A program made the position numbers and the translations under genes. A DNA stretch of 64,000 bases from Escherichia phage FFH2. Location of the stretch: the sequence record KJ190158. One strand, given 5' to 3'. Positions 35,488 to 58,480 of the stretch are shown here, piece after piece. Each line of letters opens with the position of its first letter. Position 1 is the first letter of the stretch. The notes under the pieces were generated by a model, which saw only the letters and a program-made list of their open reading frames with translations, made no database searches and was not told the origin of the DNA.

Positions 35488-35689
35488 GATTTTAACTCCT
35501 ATCTATCTGGTCAACGATTGGGGGCCTCCCCCTCGACAACTCTTATTATCCATATTGTCGGGAATGATGCAAGTACTTCTTTAAAAATTTTTTAAGCGCC
35601 CCGTATGCCGTTGTAACGCCAAAATAATAAAGGCCATGCGGTTGCATGGCCTTTATGTGATTATATTGCTGCAGGCCCTGCTAGGGGCC

Positions 35690-36040
35690 TTATTTTGCAT
35701 TCTTGCCTGTATTGCCGCCACGGTACCAGCGTCTGCGGTGAAAATGGTAATAATCACCCTCGGCATTAAACATCAGATGATTTTCAATAACCAGCTTACG
35801 AAGGTAGGCCGGATCTTGTTCCATTCTTGCCAGATTCCAGCGGCTGTTACGTAAGCGTATAAATTCCATATTCAGGCCGTTGATTGCAGTATGGATGTCA
35901 AAGTAACCACCTTTGAGACGTTCACGCATGGCGTTAAGCTCAACACAATATACAGATTTCTCACAAATCAAGGTATTAGCTATGGCGCGGACCTGGGCAA
36001 GGGGGTTAAGCTCATTAAGGTAATATAGTTTTATTTTCAT
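35690..36040 (-). CDS. hypothetical protein with basic C-terminus (116 aa)
   Basis: ORF. Confidence 0.45.
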   Translation of the reverse strand: MKIKLYYLNELNPLAQVRAIANTLICEKSVYCVELNAMRERLKGGYFDIHTAINGLNMEFIRLRNSRWNLARMEQDPAYLRKLVIENHLMFNAEGDYYHFHRRRWYRGGNTGKNAK

Positions 36041-36057
36041 AAAATCACCTGCTGAAA

Positions 36058-36366
36058 TTAGTTTGAGAAAACATCGTTCACAATAGCGATCACAATGCCG
36101 CCCACCTTGTCACGGTCAACAACGCACAAATCACCATAGATCATGCGGTAGTCTGGATGATCTTTCACAGAATAGTCAATAAGTGTTTTCTTGTCGTCCA
36201 GCTTCGTAACTTCCATTCTCATAACGATATGAGAATCATCAAAGGCATTATTCCGAAAAGTCATAGCCTGACCGCCAGGGCACCCGGTGATCTCCACTTC
36301 CACACCATCTACGATCTGACCATCAAAGAAATAAAGATTATTAGCCTGGATAAACATGTCTATCAC
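36058..36366 (-). CDS. hypothetical protein (102 aa)
   Basis: ORF; conserved 45-bp element copy 1 immediately upstream. Confidence 0.45.
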   Translation of the reverse strand: MIDMFIQANNLYFFDGQIVDGVEVEITGCPGGQAMTFRNNAFDDSHIVMRMEVTKLDDKKTLIDYSVKDHPDYRMIYGDLCVVDRDKVGGIVIAIVNDVFSN

Positions 36367-36403
36367 TCCTTGTTAACTGCGTGGTCTTTTAACAGGGTTT
36401 AAA

Positions 36404-36448
36404 TTTACTTTATTGATGGCCCTGAAGTCAAGGCCATCTAAAAATAAA
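36404..36448 (-). repeat. conserved 45-bp intergenic element, copy 1 (hairpin GATGGCC..GGCCATC with TTGACT in loop, then CAATAAAGTAAA)
   Basis: Near-identical copies at 40146-40190 and 40764-40810. On the - strand it reads as -35 TTGAC(T/G) plus 18 bp plus TAAA(C/T)T. Confidence 0.6.
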
Positions 36449-36450
36449 TT

Positions 36451-36651
36451 TTACAGGCCTACAATCTCTTTGATTCGTTTAACCGCCGCCTCAGCGCCTT
36501 GGGGGTAAAAATTATGGTAACCAATCACGCGAGTGATACTAATCGCCGTTTGATGATCTTCATAGTCGCCCTTGAAGATTTCTTGACCGTCAATCAGCAC
36601 GGCAATTTTTTCTTCTTTTTTGAAGTTAATAACGCGGATATTGTTGCTCAT
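36451..36651 (-). CDS. hypothetical protein (66 aa)
   Basis: ORF; promoter and ggggaaacatcccc hairpin upstream. Confidence 0.4.
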   Translation of the reverse strand: MSNNIRVINFKKEEKIAVLIDGQEIFKGDYEDHQTAISITRVIGYHNFYPQGAEAAVKRIKEIVGL

Positions 36652-37129
36652 TTTTGTTTCTCCTTTCTGGTTTTTGTGTTGGTGGGGATGTTTCCCCGTT
36701 GATTGTTATTATCCATATTGCGGACCAGATTGCAACACCCTGGAAGAAAAATTTTTTGAAAAAGTTAAGCCCCCATGATCGGGGGCGTTATCAGTTACTT
36801 ATAGCAATAAAGTACATTCCTACCCCTAACAATATTTCAAGGGCGATGATCTCAAGCCATACCATAACACGGCGCACCTTATCAGCGCATGGCTTATCCT
36901 TGGTTGTCATCGTCTCCCCCTTCCCTCCTGTTAGTAGTGACGTGGTTTACAATGGCCCCCAGGAGTCCTATCACCACGCACACCACAAGAAAAATTATCT
37001 CCGCTGTTGTTCGATCCATTGTTATAAAATTCCTCAAGATCAGGCCTGAAAATAAAGCGTTCGTTATTGAATCCGTCACGCCAGGCGGCTGGCTTCAAAT
37101 CTTCACTAAAGGGATTAATTAACGTGACG

Positions 37130-37503
37130 TTATTTAAACGGCTGGTCCACATATTTTCTATTCCTCTCAAATAGGCGATCCGCCTCAGTTAAACATATCT
37201 CATGGGCTTGGTCTCTGGTTTTAGCCTCATCAAAAACCTGTTGTGCCAGGCTGCAGCGTAGGGAGACTGGAAGATCACTATAATAGGCGTTGACAAACGT
37301 TTGTGCGTCATACAGGTCGGAAAACACTTTACCCTTTCTATTATCGCCCTTGTCAACAATTGCAAGGATAACCAATACAATAGTTGCAACCACTCCCAGG
37401 AAAATAGATATAACAAACCATAGAAAAGCGGATCTACCTATCTTGCCAGCGATCCAGGCGTTGAACAAGGCAACTACTACAGCCAAAATAATAAATTCCA
37501 TTC
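37130..37503 (-). CDS. membrane protein (2-3 TM helices; start ATG 37503)
   Basis: gaggtacatag RBS; hydrophobic stretches. Confidence 0.45.
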
Positions 37504-37565
37504 TATGTACCTCTTTTGCAGTTCTGTTTAACAATAAGGCGGCAAATATGCCGCCTGTTACCTGA

Positions 37566-37946
37566 TTAAAAATTATCGCCGTAAATCTTTCCGCTTTCTG
37601 CCCACACCACCACGCGGGGCATGTTATCCCATACATCTTGTTTCAGATTTAACGCGTGCAATTCTTCGGTGGTGCTCATACCAGGCACGGGCTGATTGTA
37701 TACTGCAAAACGACCACCTGCATAATCATAGGCCAGGGTTAAATCACACTGAATCATCTTTTTGATCATGGCGTTGAGCATAGCGTTAGCCGCATACTGG
37801 TCACGTTTTAAAGGCAACTCTTTGATTAGTTTGCGATAGTTTTCAATGTGATCGCACACTGTTTCACGTGGAAGATCTTTCATATCCTCGCGAAAGGTAA
37901 CCAGGTTAAACATAACGGTGTCAATAGCTTTAGTAGTGTTTTTCAT
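37566..37946 (-). CDS. hypothetical protein (126 aa)
   Basis: ORF; promoter TTGCAA-17-TATATT (37999-38027) and 5' hairpin ggggcaaacgtcttgcccc (37971-37990). Confidence 0.5.
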   Translation of the reverse strand: MKNTTKAIDTVMFNLVTFREDMKDLPRETVCDHIENYRKLIKELPLKRDQYAANAMLNAMIKKMIQCDLTLAYDYAGGRFAVYNQPVPGMSTTEELHALNLKQDVWDNMPRVVVWAESGKIYGDNF

Positions 37947-37998
37947 AATGTTTTCCTCTTTGTTTTGTGTGGGGCAAACGTCTTGCCCCCTTGAGTTT

Positions 37999-38027
37999 TA
38001 ATATAGCAGGTTTTTAGATTATTGCAA
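37999..38027 (-). promoter_or_regulatory. sigma70 promoter (TTGCAA-17-TATATT)
   Basis: Hexamers with 17-bp spacer upstream of a 5' stem-loop and the gene at 37946. Confidence 0.5.
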
Positions 38028-38035
38028 CACTTTAT

Positions 38036-38659
38036 TTATGAAAAACTCATCTCTCCATATTCATCTACATCAAACCGCCAATCATTGGCCTCAATAAGGC
38101 CGATCAGGTTTTCGGTAGTGAACTGCTCTAGATAGGCCTCCTCCAGGTCTACGTAAACCTTGCGGGATAGCTCCCGTACCGTCTCGGTGATCAGCTCTTC
38201 CAGGTCTTCCACTTTGTTTTCTTGTTTGGCGGTCAGATCTAGCCAGGTGGTATCAATGTATCCGCTTACAGTGTTTTCATGGCTGTAATGGCTGTACTTG
38301 TCGCGTTCAATACTGGCTGATAACTCGCCATCGTGCATTGTGCCGAACAAGTGACGAATTGATCGGAACTTGGTCAGGGCCTTTACTTTACGCAAGAATT
38401 TTTCTAAATCCACGTTTTCAGCACTGATTGACGCGCCGTCACCCTGGCACCAAAAGCCGGACCAATGTACATCGGTATCTTCAAGGCCGTACTCTGGAAA
38501 AACTTGTTCTTTATAATATTCAATTACACTTTCTGCGAAAAAATCCTCTCCGCTGTGTTCTTCTCTTTCGCGGACCATTTCAATAGCTTTTTCTTTTTGT
38601 TCGTCGGTCAGCACGTCGAAAGATAAATTGCAACCTGTGGTAATGTTAACGGTGGTCAT
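38036..38659 (-). CDS. hypothetical highly acidic protein (207 aa)
   Basis: ORF; promoter TTGACA-16-TATAAT at 38717-38744 and 5' hairpin ggcgggaagttttcccgcc (38688-38706). About 25% D+E. Confidence 0.5.
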   Translation of the reverse strand: MTTVNITTGCNLSFDVLTDEQKEKAIEMVREREEHSGEDFFAESVIEYYKEQVFPEYGLEDTDVHWSGFWCQGDGASISAENVDLEKFLRKVKALTKFRSIRHLFGTMHDGELSASIERDKYSHYSHENTVSGYIDTTWLDLTAKQENKVEDLEELITETVRELSRKVYVDLEEAYLEQFTTENLIGLIEANDWRFDVDEYGEMSFS

Positions 38660-38716
38660 GATATTTTCTCCTGTTTTCTTTGTTAGTGGCGGGAAGTTTT
38701 CCCGCCTGTGTGTTTA

Positions 38717-38744
38717 ATTATACTTATTGAGATTTACTTGTCAA
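38717..38744 (-). promoter_or_regulatory. sigma70 promoter (TTGACA-16-TATAAT)
   Basis: Consensus hexamers on the - strand. Confidence 0.6.
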
Positions 38745-38994
38745 CACTATTTTTTAAATTATTGTGGCGCAAAATGTTTAAAATCTCTTCAACGTCATCA
38801 ACACGGCGGCAATTTTTAAACGCTACCAATTGCCCCATGATTTTAATCACTGGGCGGCCTTGCCAGTGCCCCTGGAGAAAGCGCGCCTTGACTTTATCGG
38901 TGGGACTATCACGCCACCAAATGGCCTTGTTATTGCAGTAGTAAAAATTATTCAGGACAATATCAACTTTATCAAAATTTTTTAATTTACGCAT
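38734..38994 (-). CDS. hypothetical basic protein (86 aa)
   Basis: ORF. Confidence 0.4.
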   Translation of the reverse strand: MRKLKNFDKVDIVLNNFYYCNNKAIWWRDSPTDKVKARFLQGHWQGRPVIKIMGQLVAFKNCRRVDDVEEILNILRHNNLKNSVDK

Positions 38995-39239
38995 AGTGTT
39001 TACTCCTTCCTTCTTGCTTTGATGTGGTTAGTATATCCGGACTATTCCAAGGTGTCAAGCTTTAAATAAAATCACTGTCAATGATATTTTTAACACCATA
39101 AAACGGCCCTAGGCGATGTTTTCAGGTTAATAAAGGGGATTGCATAGGTAGGGGCTTTTGTGGCGTTTGTGGGGCCAACCAGGGGCGCTATTCGTAGGAT
39201 AGAAATAAAAAGCCCCGCACAATGGCGGGGCGTTGGTTG

Positions 39240-39437
39240 CTATTTGTCTTTGTGGCGGTATCGTTCCGCCTGTCGTTCACGTTCCAAAAGCAGGCCCGGT
39301 AATTTGCGATCATAGTGATTTCTCCAGATCTTCCCGAACCTTTTCGGTTTATTCAGTTTATTGTTACGCTGGCGGCGTTCCGGCAGCTCTTCGGAATCGT
39401 GGGGGCGCTTTACAATTTTTTCGAAATTAATTTTCAT
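39240..39437 (-). CDS. hypothetical very basic protein (~65 aa, start MKINFEK)
   Basis: aaagggggcg RBS; R/K-rich. Confidence 0.4.
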   Translation of the reverse strand: MKINFEKIVKRPHDSEELPERRQRNNKLNKPKRFGKIWRNHYDRKLPGLLLERERQAERYRHKDK

Positions 39438-39798
39438 AAACGCCCCCTTTACTGATCTCAATATTTGCCTGAATCGCCCGGATACGACGTTTTATAGTCT
39501 CCTGATCCTTGCAATCATATCCCCAAAAGTCTACGATTTTTGCGCCGCCAGCCTTTAAGCGGTATAATGTTTCTTGCATCTTGTAAGCTGGGATCGGTCT
39601 CGGTGTTACCTGGTCCCCTTTCCCATCCTTGTACTTGATAATGTAGTCTTCGTTGTCGTTGAATACCCAAAATGGGTATTCTGTAAGCGCGTTGCTCTCT
39701 TTTTCGTTTTTGGATTGGATCTTGTTTACAATTAAAGCCGTAGCAATAGCGCCAATAATAAAACTTGCCCCGCTGATCATGTTACTTTCTCCTTTCAT
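39427..39798 (-). CDS. hypothetical protein with N-terminal TM helix (123 aa)
   Basis: ISGASFIIGAIATALIV hydrophobic segment. Confidence 0.45.
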   Translation of the reverse strand: MKGESNMISGASFIIGAIATALIVNKIQSKNEKESNALTEYPFWVFNDNEDYIIKYKDGKGDQVTPRPIPAYKMQETLYRLKAGGAKIVDFWGYDCKDQETIKRRIRAIQANIEISKGGVYEN

Positions 39799-39856
39799 TG
39801 TGCTGATAAACTATCTTTATAGATGGCCCTGCCACCAGGACCACCGAAAAAACAGT

Positions 39857-40102
39857 TTATTTGACGATACCGACAAAACAGATCCCGCCTTCCCCTATAT
39901 AGGCAATATCGGTAATTTTATAATTTGTCAAGATCCGCGTGTTCAGATCATTAATAAAATCGGTCATCGCGTTGGTGTAGTTGTCTTCCGTGTCTAAGGC
40001 ATAATCCCAGGTGTAAACCTTTTTACGTCCGAAGCCTTTTACCATGATACGGGCGCTTTTGGTGTTGGTAGGGGCATAATATTTGGTAATTAGTGCGGCC
40101 AT
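39857..40102 (-). CDS. hypothetical protein (81 aa)
   Basis: ORF; conserved 45-bp element copy 2 (40146-40190) upstream. Confidence 0.45.
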   Translation of the reverse strand: MAALITKYYAPTNTKSARIMVKGFGRKKVYTWDYALDTEDNYTNAMTDFINDLNTRILTNYKITDIAYIGEGGICFVGIVK

Positions 40103-40191
40103 TGTTTTAACTCCTCTATATTAGTTCAGTGTTAACAGTGTAAAGTTTACTTTATTGATGGCCCTGGAGTCAAGGCCATCTAAAAATAAAT

Positions 40192-40533
40192 TTACTCGTT
40201 TTCTTCCAGTTCTGCAAGCTCTTCTTTCACTTCTTCAAGCTCTGTCTGTAATTCTTGGTATTCTTCATCGTCCTCAATATCCAGGCTGTCGATGTAGTCG
40301 CTAAATCCGCAGCGGTAAGCGATAGGATCTAGCTCCTTGAGGATACGCGACGGAAGAAAAGAAATGTTTCCGATCATAATTTCGCCGTAGATCTCGTCTA
40401 ACCATTCATCATAGTTTTCGTCGTACTTGTCCTCGTCGATTTCAAAGTTATCGATCTTATTCTCAAGGTCTGCGATCTGTTTTTTCAGCGCGGCGATCTG
40501 CATGGCTTTTTCTGCGGCGGTCATAGTAGTCAT
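40192..40533 (-). CDS. highly acidic coiled-coil protein (113 aa); possible DNA mimic
   Basis: About 30% D/E (ELEEVKEELAELEENE, DEDKYDENYDEW). Size and charge resemble Ocr-type anti-restriction proteins. Promoter TTGACA-16-TATACT and 5' hairpin gggaaaacttccc upstream. Confidence 0.45.
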   Translation of the reverse strand: MTTMTAAEKAMQIAALKKQIADLENKIDNFEIDEDKYDENYDEWLDEIYGEIMIGNISFLPSRILKELDPIAYRCGFSDYIDSLDIEDDEEYQELQTELEEVKEELAELEENE

Positions 40534-40810
40534 GGTGTTTTCTCCTTTTGTGTGTTCTGGGAAGTTTTCCCGTTTATGTGTTTAGTATACTGATCTAAGT
40601 TAGCTTGTCAATTAAAAGTTTAAGAAAAATTTTGCGATACCGTTGGCGCTACCCATCAACATTTGCGCCAGGATGTAACCAATGATGCAAACGATAATAG
40701 TTACCTTTGTGTGCTGGCGTGTAGTACTCATCTTCAAGCCTCCTTTTAGCTTAACTGGGATTAGTTTACTTTATTGATGGCCCTGGCGTCAAGACCATCT
40801 AAAAATAAAC

Positions 40811-41206
40811 TTAGTAAGTTTTCAGTACTTTCCCGTCCAATCTGTCAAGCTGGATCTCGATAGCTGCAGAAAACCTATTATAAACCACATCGCCCATGGA
40901 GTCCAGCCAATCTATGACGTTATACACCTGCTCTTTATTCTTGCAAGTCCGGATCCGTTTCATTACGTAAGACGGATCAATATTAGTGCTCTCGTTGTTG
41001 TGGTCATGCGCCTGGCCTGCTGCATTAGTTATAGATTTTACAACCACCTGAAAGGGCTTTAAGGTGCCTTTTGCGTTCATCTCACGCGCTTTTGCGGCGC
41101 GGTTGTTATATGTTACACAACGGCGGCAAATGTTGACCAAATGCATATCAATAATTTTTTCATCGTTTGCCAGTTCGTTCATGATGCGGCGTACGTTCTT
41201 ATTCAT
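40811..41206 (-). CDS. hypothetical protein (131 aa)
   Basis: ORF; promoter TTGACA-16-TAAACT and hairpin ggcgggaatgtttcccgcc upstream. A 35-aa hydrophobic peptide ORF (40624-40731) lies downstream. Confidence 0.45.
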   Translation of the reverse strand: MNKNVRRIMNELANDEKIIDMHLVNICRRCVTYNNRAAKAREMNAKGTLKPFQVVVKSITNAAGQAHDHNNESTNIDPSYVMKRIRTCKNKEQVYNVIDWLDSMGDVVYNRFSAAIEIQLDRLDGKVLKTY

Positions 41207-41292
41207 GATCTTTTTCCTTTGTGTTGGCGGGAAACATTCCCGCCTTTTGTGCCCAGTTTACTTTAATTTTGCAGCGTGTCAATAATTTTTTT

Positions 41293-41691
41293 TTATTCGT
41301 GGGCGCATGTCACAATGTGCTTTTTATACCCCAGGTGGGCAGCAAGTGCTGACAAAAACTCATCTTCATAGATCCAGCCGTTGGCAGTGATCCCCATAGC
41401 ATTTAACGCGCTTTCAAGTGCTGCATTGGCCTTATCATAACCGTGACCGCTCGCCTTGCCACCAGTATAACCGTACTTGTTGTTCTTGCTGTCGTGCATC
41501 CAAAAGACGCAATAATGAGTGTTACCGCTGGAGGCGGCATAGTACCGGATCTCCGCTACTTCGTGCAAATTATTATCATCGTCCAGGCCAACCAGATTAT
41601 AAGCCTTGTAAAATCCACGATCACGGCGGCAGTTCTTGACATCAGAAAAAGAGAAGTCGGCATTGTCAAAATTAAAGGTTGTGGTTTTCAT
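41293..41691 (-). CDS. hypothetical protein (132 aa)
   Basis: ORF. Confidence 0.45.
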   Translation of the reverse strand: MKTTTFNFDNADFSFSDVKNCRRDRGFYKAYNLVGLDDDNNLHEVAEIRYYAASSGNTHYCVFWMHDSKNNKYGYTGGKASGHGYDKANAALESALNAMGITANGWIYEDEFLSALAAHLGYKKHIVTCAHE

Positions 41692-41755
41692 GATTTTATC
41701 CTCTTAGTGTCTTTTGTGATTTCAGTATATTTTGTGTCGGGGCGTATGTCAATAC

Positions 41756-41953
41756 TTATTTTTTATTAAACCAGTGATTGATCTGACCTTTTGTCAGGGC
41801 GCAACGATTAAGTTGGTGCCGGGTATAGCTCTGACCGCGACGGAATTTATAAAGGCCTTGCCCGTTGTTGATGGTTACGTCCACCTGGCAAACCATTTGA
41901 TCGGTGACCACCTGGCGAGCGTTGCGACGTACTTTGATTCCGTAGGCGTTCAT
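41756..41953 (-). CDS. hypothetical basic protein (65 aa)
   Basis: ORF. A ~58-aa ORF (42041-42217) lies upstream. Confidence 0.35.
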   Translation of the reverse strand: MNAYGIKVRRNARQVVTDQMVCQVDVTINNGQGLYKFRRGQSYTRHQLNRCALTKGQINHWFNKK

Positions 41954-42374
41954 GATTTTTTATCCTCTCTGTTAATTAGTGTGGTGTTGTTCACCTTGCG
42001 AGGATAAGAATAACAAGAACTGTCCGAGCTGTCAACTATTAGTTAAAATTATTTTTTGGGCGGAATTCTCCAGCCGCCGCCCCTGCCAGGTTAACCATCA
42101 TTTTTTCGTACTCTTCTTTATATTCCAACGCTCCCGCTATAGCCTTTTCAACCAGGGCGATAGCCTCAGCGTCATTAATAGCTACATTTTCCAGGGGGAT
42201 CATATTACCTTTCATTTTTGTACCTCCTCTTCAATTGTTACCTATCCTATAGCATAGGCCCACCAGGTTTACAAGCCTTCATTCTCTCCTACCTGGTCAG
42301 TTAGGTCCTGCCAGGCTGGCCCCACTAGGTTGCAGCGGTTAGTGCATCAGGTTAGAAAAATTTTTTGAAAAGTG

Positions 42375-42546: not shown

Positions 42547-42739
42547 AATAACAAGCCGGGGCAACAGGGGCCGGGAGACAATCACCGGGCCTGCCCGTTA
42601 TTCTGCAAACGAGAATGATTATCATTCAAAATTCTAAATGAGAACTCCTCGCATTTAATAAATTTAATTAGCACGCTAATTACACTCCGTAACAATTTAC
42701 TATAAAATAGTATCCACTAAAATATTCCCATATAGAAAT

Positions 42740-43200
42740 TTTAAAAATCCATTTCTGAAAACGAAAAATCGATTTCGTCCCTAAAAATTTCAGGCCTAGA
42801 TCCGGAACGATTTCCAGAAAATCCGATTCAGAAAACGAAAAACAGATCGAGTACTGAGAAATTTATCGAGAAAAATTTTCAGAAAATCCAAGCCCTGAAA
42901 TGAAAAGTAGATCGAGTACCTGGAAAGCTGCACCGCAACTTCAAGATAGTGGTTAGATTGTTACCATAGAAGGTCAAGGGTAAGTGGAGGAAGTTCTAGT
43001 AGAGGGAGGTTAGCATGTGTGGGAAATCTATAATGGTGGCCTGGAATATAGTGCAAACGATAGGATGAGTTATTCAGCTTGTCGCGCCTACTCTGAAAAA
43101 TCCATTTTAGTTTTCGATCCATTTTCTGATTTTCTAAGAATTTTAAAATATCCGGCCCGGTGAAATATCAAAAGGAGGAAATCCATTTTAGAAATCCCCC
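42740..43200. repeat. iteron-like direct repeats (gaaaacgaaaaa; agatcgagtac; aaatccatttt)
   Basis: gaaaacgaaaaa at 42757 and 42832; agatcgagtac at 42844 and 42909; aaatccatttt three times. ORF-free. Confidence 0.5.
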
Positions 43201-46707: not shown

Positions 46708-46769
46708 TTTTCAGATCTCCTTATACAAAAATGCCCCACCCTTTCGGGCAGGGCTATGTTAACTAGATG

Positions 46770-57675: not shown

Positions 57676-58459
57676 TAATTCTGCTCCTTACTACAGGCTC
57701 GTTTGCTAAGAATACGGCTTTTGCCCAGCCACGTGGTGTGAGGCTTCGGATCATCTTCGTTCTTGCACTCTTTCCACCCAGCTTGGCGTGTTGCATGGAA
57801 TACCCGCTAACCGCGTCAACTATTTGCGGGACAGGTTTTGTGGCCGGGATTATAAATCCATTACCTATCCAGCCGCAAGTTATTTTTGGATAGGCATCAC
57901 GTGGAGCTATAAATTCAGGAAACCAGGGGTTTACATCATCCTCCGGTAAATACCCGCCATAGTCAGAAGGGTGAAAACGGTAATCAGGTTTGCGCCACAG
58001 TGTGGACATAACACCCACAGGATTCTCTACATGCCACGGGCAATCGTAAATCTCTCCCAACTCTTCTGCAACCCGAGCATCCTTTACAGCATTAATCTGG
58101 ATCAGCGGGTCCTTAGCCAGCTTCTTCTTAAAGTGTGCAGCACCTGACACCGCTAAGTGGGTGCACGGAGGAAATGCAAGAACAAAGTCCGGAGCGGGGT
58201 ACATGCAGAAAGTTTCCTGAGGGAACCATGGATCAATCCAATAATCTACATAGTGAATATTTGGATGATCGGTGATCACCTCTGCATAACTGCCGTGGTC
58301 AGCACCTTCTGCATTAAAGCACAGGCACAGGTACCCAGCTTTTGCCCAGTCAATAACTGCACCACCAGACCCGTCAAATAGGCTCCACACAACACCTTTG
58401 TGGTAGTGTTCTTTGTAGATGAATTTCAATTTGCTGTCTCCTAATGCAAAAAGCCCCAC
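57665..58459 (-). CDS. C5-cytosine DNA methyltransferase-like protein
   Basis: LFDGSGG (motif I-like F.G.GG), FPPCTHLAVSG (motif IV PC) and HVENPVG (motif VI ENV) in canonical order. Confidence 0.5.
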   Translation of the reverse strand: MGLFALGDSKLKFIYKEHYHKGVVWSLFDGSGGAVIDWAKAGYLCLCFNAEGADHGSYAEVITDHPNIHYVDYWIDPWFPQETFCMYPAPDFVLAFPPCTHLAVSGAAHFKKKLAKDPLIQINAVKDARVAEELGEIYDCPWHVENPVGVMSTLWRKPDYRFHPSDYGGYLPEDDVNPWFPEFIAPRDAYPKITCGWIGNGFIIPATKPVPQIVDAVSGYSMQHAKLGGKSARTKMIRSLTPRGWAKAVFLANEPVVRSRINGK

Positions 58460-58480
58460 CCTTTCGGGCAGGGCCTAATG

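Follow-up and report, generated by a model that had tools for sequence, protein, structure and literature searches.

The 64,000-nt stretch of Escherichia phage FFH2 DNA analyzed here (sequence record KJ190158; hereafter 'the window') is from a Vequintavirus (rV5-like) genome and carries, in intergenic gaps between 36.4 and 40.8 kb, copies of a hairpin-forming repeat, which we refer to as 'the element'. The minus strand carries every gene between 34 and 44 kb. The genes that flank the copies are small ORFans, and all eight of their products fall in families of unknown function in a PHROGs search. Near-consensus sigma-70 promoters and a few intrinsic terminators are scattered among the genes of the 34-44 kb region, and a strong upstream promoter, oriented in the same direction, precedes each of the genes downstream of a copy. 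Promoters and terminators of this kind were already predicted for the early region of rV5 (rV5 genome paper; PMC3606486, Table S4); the same table lists no promoter and no terminator at the positions of the element. The 5.4 kb that surround the element are 94-96.5% identical to the corresponding DNA of >100 genomes of Vequintavirus (rV5-like) E. coli myoviruses. A repeat finder and a covariance model, taken together, give a total of exactly four copies in the window, all within 4.4 kb (36.4-40.8 kb):

Copy 1: 36397..36454, minus strand, between gene 36451-36651 (upstream) and gene 36058-36357 (downstream); covariance-model score 79.5 bits
Copy 1, parts: minus strand, upper stem and loop at 36415-36438, 3' side of the internal loop (AAU) at 36412-36414
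Copy 1, putative hexamers: minus strand, -35 TTGACT at 36426-36431, -10 TAAATT at 36402-36407
Copy 2: 40139..40196, minus strand, between gene 40192-40533 (ORF192 homologue) and gene 39857-40102 (ORF191 homologue); 74.7 bits
Copy 2, parts: minus strand, upper stem and loop at 40157-40180, internal-loop AAU at 40154-40156
Copy 2, putative hexamers: minus strand, -35 TTGACT at 40168-40173, -10 TAAACT at 40144-40149
Copy 3: 40758..40815, minus strand, between gene 40811-41206 and the 39-aa gene 40612-40731; 74.8 bits
Copy 3, parts: minus strand, upper stem and loop at 40776-40799, internal-loop AAU at 40773-40775
Copy 3, putative hexamers: minus strand, -35 TTGACG at 40787-40792, -10 TAAACT at 40763-40768
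Copy 4, diverged: 39804..39861, minus strand, between gene 39857-40102 and gene 39427-39780; 74.5 bits; internal loop at 39819-39821

The first-pass annotation of this DNA had described three copies of a conserved 45-bp hairpin element, each placed exactly between a stop codon and the next gene. The three 45-mers are present, at 36404-36448, 40146-40190 and 40765-40809, with zero to two substitutions from their consensus; the third copy is real, and the interval first assigned to it (40764-40810) is one base too wide on each side. The intergenic placement is likewise borne out: each of these copies starts 1-3 nt past the stop codon of the upstream minus-strand gene (36451-36651, 40192-40533 and 40811-41206), and 33-46 nt separate the end of the copy from the next start codon, with the ribosome-binding site (RBS) of the next gene in between. 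The count of three holds for the near-identical copies and had overlooked the diverged fourth at 39804-39861 (62% identical), and the repeat unit is ~58-63 nt long, not 45. The core of the repeat, GATGGCC-N10-GGCCATC, has four matches at <=2 mismatches in the window, vs. 0.14 expected from shuffled sequences.

A blast search detected three copies in each of ~116 Vequintavirus records and, beyond Vequintavirus, no copies except one in the phi92-like phage KKE7M. Pattern scans of IMG/VR and of metagenomes were set aside as raw results, nearly all of their single matches being chance matches to a degenerate pattern; filtering these scans with the covariance model left a few rV5-like contigs (L011, L015 and L016 from IMG/VR; L039, L044, L053, L078 and L099 from metagenomes) and revealed no new lineage or context for the element. 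An Rfam scan of 35500-42000 at E<=1 gave no match over the element; a Clostridium-PBP match elsewhere in the region, at E=0.03 and far under the gathering score, was taken as chance. Some 17-22 GenBank records in the MG0656xx series are named 'Campylobacter phage' (host Campylobacter jejuni) and are 94-100% identical to E. coli rV5-like or phi92-like phages, which suggests mislabelled hosts or contaminating coliphages.

On the gene strand the element reads, in order, stop codon, UUUAUUUUUA, GAUGGCCUUG, ACUC, CAGGGCCAUC, AAU, AAAGUAAA(C/U)U. The stem had been put at 7 bp; in the transcript, the upper stem comprises 10 bp, including a U·G pair, closes a 4-nt loop, and stands within a 23-bp interrupted hairpin. 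An internal loop with 2 nt on its 5' side and 3 nt on its 3' side separates the upper stem from an AU-rich lower stem of 10-13 bp that starts at the upstream stop codon (RNAfold). The gene-strand fold has a predicted energy of -21 to -31 kcal/mol in 20 of 21 copies, with z scores of -4.7 to -6.5 vs. shuffles (~-24 kcal/mol and z = -6.0 for copy 1). Within the window, a C>U change in the upper stem of copy 3 yields one more G·U pair. Copy 4, with a fold of -28.8 kcal/mol, shares the hairpin plan of copies 1-3: its upper stem, GGUGGUCCUG/CAGGGCCAUC, contains two G·U pairs, its loop is GNNG/GUAA, its internal loop is UAU, and its 13-bp lower stem carries compensatory changes. In every copy, the opposite strand has a fold that is weaker by 4-14 kcal/mol, because G·U pairs turn into A·C mismatches on that strand. 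Plus-strand RNA was accordingly rejected as the acting molecule, its fold being weaker and the wobbles becoming mismatches. A sliding 70-nt minimum-free-energy scan of the whole window was rejected as not discriminating (392 windows below -19 kcal/mol, mostly intragenic).

The one exception among the 21 folds is copy 3 of phage Gotham (MT682716; L002:4425), in which a 5-nt deletion removes the 3' arm of the upper stem, destroys the hairpin, and shortens the promoter spacer to 13. In a related metagenomic contig, L078, the Gotham-type copy 3 is intact; the Gotham deletion reflects either a mutation private to that phage or an error in sequencing.

The pattern of variation in the stems was assessed in an alignment of 20 distinct copies from 10 genomes. 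The results indicate that 93% of the cells assigned to base pairs are paired, vs. 38-56% when the 3' partner is slid by one to three columns. The upper helix is 100% paired, and the four of its 10 pairs that vary do so solely via G·U; in the lower helix, five pairs are altered on both sides, one example being a pair that is C:G in one version of copy 4 and U:A in the other. In total, 58 cells, at nine pair positions, are G·U, vs. 2 that are A·C, corresponding to roughly ten vs. two independent events. The excess of G·U over A·C, together with the compensatory changes, argues for selection on RNA and not on a DNA palindrome. From these comparisons we conclude that the hairpin belongs to the minus-strand transcript and is under selection there.

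The same data bear on two other readings of the repeat. The first-pass annotation had named a regulator-binding site as one possibility, and in its explicit form this would be a DNA operator, in which a dimeric phage or host protein binds GATGGCC-N10-GGCCATC where it overlaps the -35 hexamer described below and switches the promoters. In most copy 1-3 sequences the 7-bp arms are free of mismatches, and they do overlap the -35 and the spacer. However, variation in the stems preserves pairing on the transcribed strand only: one-sided changes are tolerated where they give the transcript a G·U pair, even though each of them breaks the symmetry of the DNA, so that the symmetric conservation of half-sites expected of a palindromic operator is absent. 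Copy 4 is conserved despite two such changes in one arm, and the AU-rich lower stem covaries too, which an operator would leave unexplained. A centre-to-centre half-site spacing of 17 bp is, in addition, unusual for an operator. We consider an operator very unlikely, and a palindromic operator was rejected. The second reading takes the element to be a selfish or neutral dispersed repeat, a remnant of local duplication whose only effect is to provide homology for recombination. There are merely four copies, all within 4.4 kb, and, as documented below, they clearly recombine; but a neutral repeat would not retain pairing through wobble and compensatory changes, and would not preserve the fold in a copy that is 62% identical, across all genomes, and we judge this reading the most improbable of those considered. 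A hairpin in minus-strand single-stranded DNA, for example a priming signal, is formally admissible, in that it is compatible with tolerance of G·T pairs; it is otherwise unsupported.

A stable hairpin in an intergenic gap might be expected to terminate transcription, and the first-pass annotation had proposed a combined terminator/promoter cassette. On both strands, however, a U-rich tract lies 5' of the stem and an A-rich tract lies 3' of it, the 3' flank being AAUAAAGUAAA on the minus strand and UAAAAAUAAA on the plus strand. A terminator scan left the element unlisted, while listing genuine neighbouring terminators at 39231, 37556 and 36786. Because there is no U-tract on either strand, the hairpin is not an intrinsic (Rho-independent) terminator, for which a GC hairpin joined to a U-tract is the defining combination, and that candidate was rejected; the canonical terminator half of the proposed cassette thus falls away, and the promoter half stands by comparison only. 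There remains the reading that the element is a non-canonical terminator or attenuator, in which the hairpin stops or cuts read-through and an embedded promoter restarts transcription. The stability of the hairpin (-22 to -29 kcal/mol) speaks for it, as do two precedents: stem-loops of PeSL (promoter-early stem-loop) cassettes of T4-like phages, which have been given this same interpretation, lowered expression as much as rrnB T1 when placed before lacZ (PMC2839356), and promoter-coupled terminators, in which the DNA of the terminator stem-loop contains the -35 of the next promoter, have been reported to be common in bacteria (Fletcher et al. 2026 preprint, 10.64898/2026.08.19.745784). The element resembles the latter in that the DNA of a stem-loop between tandem genes also provides the -35 region of the promoter that follows. 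Unlike promoter-coupled terminators, which need a T-tract, it has AATAAAG between the upper stem and the -10; its U-rich tract 5' of the hairpin and its A-rich 3' flank are the reverse of what intrinsic termination needs; it escaped a scan that listed true terminators nearby; and the lacZ assay of PeSLs cannot tell termination from RNA processing. On balance, termination or attenuation by the element appears distinctly unlikely.

The architecture of the hairpin points instead to processing. For comparison, we folded the five early RNase III sites of phage T7. Each has a GC-rich upper stem of 9-13 bp, a small loop and an AU-rich lower stem, and four of the five have a 3-nt internal loop on the 3' side (UAU in R0.3, R0.5 and R1.1; AAU, with UA on the 5' side, in R1). 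The cleavage positions, which we take to be those of Dunn and Studier, fall within the internal loops. The internal loops of the element are UA/AAU in copies 1-3 and UAU in copy 4. RNase III substrates span ~two helical turns, and a helix of 10-11 bp separates the tetraloop from the cleavage site in R1.1 (Pertzev and Nicholson 2006; PMC1540722); a helix of ~two turns with an internal loop 10-11 bp below the loop is present in all intact copies of the element and likewise in R0.3, R0.5, R1 and R1.1. In such substrates, internal loops limit cleavage to one strand and thereby leave a protective 3' hairpin (PMC1540722). The distal box of R1.1 consists of U:A followed by U:G beside the closing pair, and a G:C pair at position 2 of the proximal box blocks binding (PMC1540722). 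Aligned from the loop, copies 1-3 have U9:A16 and U8·G17 at the distal box and A2:U23 at proximal position 2; the U of this wobble is also the first T of the sequence TTGAC considered below.

Like R0.3, R0.5, R1, R1.1 and R1.3 of T7, the element is intercistronic, in an early polycistronic region read by host polymerase, and has a small loop on a GC-rich upper stem of ~10 bp, which is separated from an AU lower stem by an internal loop with 3 nt on its 3' side. Unlike the T7 sites, with which it shares no sequence homology, it has a candidate promoter superimposed on the hairpin and not beside it. In T7 itself (NC_001604; 1419-1498, 3093-3172, 5830-5909 and 6389-6468), every early RNase III hairpin shares its gap with a promoter (E. 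coli B and C; phi1.1A/B; phi1.3), and on the evidence of these gaps, combining a processing hairpin with a promoter is an old design. Taking the comparisons together, we consider it very probable that the element acts on read-through transcripts in RNA processing or stability; that the processing would be carried out by RNase III, as the analogy with T7 suggests, is a serious possibility that falls short of being probable.

The element also contains a candidate promoter. The first-pass annotation had reported, on the minus strand, TTGAC(T/G) located 18 bp upstream of TAAA(C/T)T, and this arrangement is confirmed in copies 1-3. It had further stated that the motif preceding the downstream hexamer recurs in the promoter of gene 40811-41206; that promoter, predicted as TTGACA-N16-TAAACT with ATTAAAG just before the -10, has TAAAGTAAACT in common with the element and does not share the full CAATAAAG. 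The sequence AATAAAGTAAACT, which forms the -10 context, also occurs in promoters of phage UAB_1 that lack a hairpin, in addition to the close variant at gene 40811-41206. TTGA is invariant, and TTGAC is found in 12 of 13 distinct copy 1-3 sequences (TTGATA in the remaining one), with the next two loop bases taking all values. The loop bases that complete TTGAC, A and C, are unpaired and are conserved in copies 1-3. In copy 4, the loop is unrelated and lacks TTGAC, all that is left being a degenerate CTGGTG and a GATA(G/A)T hexamer. In 13 of 13 distinct copy 1-3 sequences, the U·G wobble involves the first T of TTGAC, whereas copy 4, which has no -35, has C:G; to judge from this pattern, retention of that T seems to come at the cost of a wobble. 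An A/T tract, AAATTTATTTT, lies upstream of the -35, presumably at the position expected for an UP element. The GenBank record of Gotham annotates PhagePromoter predictions at two of its copies. Promoter activity in copies 1-3 is thus inferred, with comparative support, from their sequences.

A second class of intergenic cassette is present on the same strand, with -35 hexamers at 41282, 40611, 38744, 34918, 33070 and 61099. Its design comprises a near-consensus sigma-70 promoter, followed after ~10 nt by a short GC hairpin in the 5' untranslated region (5' UTR) of the GGCGGGAA..UUCCCGCC type (for example at 41226-41244, 40558-40572 and 38688-38706), and then by the RBS. The same design is found in the phi92-like phages muut, UAB_1 and KKE7M. 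This second class may stabilise 5' ends and may represent a further PeSL-like family.

Comparison of relatives reveals, beyond what the first-pass annotation had described, that the copies of the element coincide with the ends of gene modules that have been lost or moved. The modules concerned are as follows:

Module between copies 3 and 2: 40191..40763, minus strand, 39-aa gene, strong promoter (-35 at 40611) with a 5' UTR hairpin, and ORF192 homologue
ORF192 homologue (rV5): 40192-40533, minus strand
ORF191 homologue, forming the module between copies 2 and 4: 39857..40102, minus strand
Segment found in KKE7M: 40146..40612, minus strand, promoter -35, 5' UTR hairpin, ORF192 and hairpin element, ending within the -10 hexamer of the element

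Phages ime and phiWec189 and the IMG/VR contig L015 are without window positions 40191-40763 and have, at that point, just one copy, a hybrid whose left flank is that of copy 3 and whose right flank is that of copy 2. Phage 241Ecol014PP is without ORF191 and has a hybrid copy that joins the left part of copy 2 to the right part of copy 4, with the junction in ...CAATAAAG|ATAATTT. Distant homologues of ORF192 exist in unrelated phages (tblastn) and are uninformative on the hairpin. An apparent replacement downstream of copy 3 in contig L039 was rejected as an event, the gene there being just a diverged orthologue with 82% identity.

The third event is a transfer between phage lineages. KKE7M is a phi92-like phage (Justusliebigvirus) of another subfamily, and it contains the DNA of window positions 40612-40146 at 95.9% identity. 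Its cassette-free relative muut has, at the equivalent place, a single promoter, TTGACAAGATAACTAAAATCAG-TAAACT-ATATTCATTAAGGCGG... The left crossover in KKE7M lies in the spacer of the muut-type promoter, and the right crossover lies in AGTAAA(C/T)T, so that TAAATT of the element aligns base for base with the -10 TAAACT of muut, immediately before ATATTCATTAAGGCGG..., with the downstream 5' UTR in register. From the positions of the crossovers it follows that the TAAATT of the element fills the slot of the resident -10. KKE7M provides a clean natural case of a cassette that has moved from one phage subfamily to another, and both of its junctions fall in promoter sequence. Counting this transfer, the aligned genomes establish three independent events with cassette junctions.

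The combination of features in the element recalls the PeSL cassettes of T4-like phages. A PeSL comprises a stop codon in an AT-rich tract, sigma-70 -35 and -10 hexamers, a stem-loop that includes G-T pairs and can overlap the -35, and a Shine-Dalgarno sequence with a start codon (PMC2839356; PMC4122927). PeSLs reside among ORFans of hyperplastic regions, and crossovers occur inside them (PMC2839356; PMC4122927). We compared the element with the PeSL systems of RB49/phi1, T4/PST and KVP40/nt-1 (Arbiol et al. 2010, PMC2839356; Comeau et al. 2014, PMC4122927). Sigma-70 hexamers at promoter spacing are matched in the sequences of copies 1-3, copy 4 failing in this respect. The stem-loop overlap is matched: the hairpin covers the -35, the spacer and the -10, the lower stem includes the stop codon, and an RBS and ATG lie 33-46 nt further downstream. 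Repetition among the ORFans of a variable region is matched by the four copies, a number much smaller than in RB49, and by several indels among relatives, and crossovers that swap, insert or delete ORFs are matched in ime, phiWec189, L015, 241Ecol014PP and KKE7M. 'Degraded' copies exist among PeSLs and likewise here. At the level of sequence, then, every PeSL feature is present in the element.

There are also differences. The element belongs to a Vequintavirinae lineage and has no sequence similarity to PeSLs. In place of the short polyG/polyC stem of a PeSL it has a 23-bp two-part hairpin that encloses the whole promoter, and its putative promoter is weak, unlike the near-consensus promoter of a PeSL. 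Terminator activity and mini-circles have been shown for PeSLs (PMC2839356), and the hairpin of the element is without terminator features. The searched literature contained no report of PeSL-like cassettes in rV5-like phages. In the rV5 record (DQ832317), the annotation of ORFs 205, 206, 209 and 210 notes a similarity to hypothetical proteins of RB49, the T4-like phage from which PeSLs were first described; this similarity hints at gene exchange between the variable regions of both lineages.

According to the reading that we favor, and that we consider probable, the element is a composite PeSL-like promoter/stem-loop cassette of ~60 nt in a non-T4 phage, serving as hairpin, promoter and recombination substrate. 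Transcripts that read through from the strong upstream host-type promoters would fold into the 23-bp interrupted hairpin, which would act, most likely, as an RNase III-type processing and 3'-end-stabilising signal, by analogy with the hairpins between T7 early genes. In copies 1-3, a modest sigma-70 promoter in the same DNA would re-initiate transcription of the next small gene, with an UP-like tract in the 5' arm of the lower stem, TTGAC(N) over the top of the upper stem and the loop, and TAAA(C/T)T in the 3' arm of the lower stem. Copy 4 has kept the hairpin and lost the -35. The dispersed homologous copies serve, as the comparison of genomes shows, as crossover points, at which modules are deleted, inserted, or carried to other phage lineages. 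The best reading of the element is as a functional counterpart, in Vequintavirus, of the PeSL cassettes of T4-like phages.

Several observations weigh against this reading. The putative hexamers agree with the consensus in 9 of 12 positions, their 18-bp spacer is not optimal, and sites of this 9/12 level are common by chance (38 found vs. 21 expected in 10 kb). Nearly all conserved promoter bases are also stem bases, so that the constraints of structure and of promoter are confounded. Copy 4 and the Gotham copy 3 are without a working promoter arrangement, and a promoter is therefore dispensable at some sites. At the proximal box, positions 1 and 3 of copies 1-3 are U:A and G:C, where G:C and A:U are preferred, and copy 4 is without the U·G of the distal box, having C:G instead. 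The sequences compared come from one genus, at >90% identity, and gene conversion may homogenise the copies, so that the pair counts are not independent. PeSLs number dozens per genome, vs. four copies in 4.4 kb here. Other indels in the region are not at the element. In the searched literature, no transcriptome and no transcript-end mapping of rV5-like phages was found. As regards indels, gene 35690-36040 (116 aa) is present in the window, isim, ime and phiWec189 and is absent from rV5, Gotham and contig L015; the junctions of this indel are not at the hairpin element.

Some of these observations would suit a simpler reading, in which the element acts solely as an RNA hairpin, for intercistronic processing by RNase III or another factor or for stability, with no promoter, the hexamers being by-products of the stem and loop sequence and the downstream genes being expressed by read-through. 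Copy 4 retains the hairpin without TTGAC, the hexamer match and spacer are at the level of chance, almost all of the putative promoter bases are in stems, and the strong co-directional promoter upstream of each downstream gene could supply its transcript. On the other hand, conservation in the loop extends to the two bases that complete TTGAC and not to the other two, and the loop of copy 4 is very different; the U·G wobble is confined to copies that have TTGAC; and in KKE7M the resident -10 has been replaced, in exact register, by the hexamer of the element. We regard a hairpin without a promoter as rather unlikely, and continue to favor the composite cassette. A stronger form of the composite reading, in which a dual-coded 60-nt module combines an RNase III signal on read-through messenger RNA with a sigma-70 promoter, insulates each small early gene, and is portable between subfamilies, can be put forward only tentatively.

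Two further repeats in the window stand apart from the element. At 42726-42926, in a region without long ORFs, there are three degenerate direct repeats of ~62-74 nt that are 61-73% identical, for which an origin or iterons are a possibility. At 46728-46754 and 58448-58474, 11.7 kb apart, there are two terminator-type hairpins (GCCCCACCCTTTCGGGCAGGGC) that are 96% identical and that correspond to t213/t232 of the rV5 paper (PMC3606486).

For annotation, the analysis explains a conserved and unannotated repeat in ~120 genomes of Vequintavirus, several of which belong to candidates for phage therapy or biocontrol. Selection at the level of RNA, together with a T7-like architecture, provides a concrete and testable alternative to the 'terminator' reading of such stem-loops; if the dual-coded reading is true, the 'terminators' of PeSLs in general may be processing sites. 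It would also mean that a dual-coded module has carried genes from Vequintavirinae to Stephanstirmvirinae, and that shuffling of the PeSL type extends past T4-like phages. Many of the accessory early genes concerned likely have roles in host takeover or anti-defence. Cassettes that combine a promoter with a stem-loop would then not be peculiar to T4-like phages, and would be a general means by which large lytic phages organise and exchange their accessory early genes.

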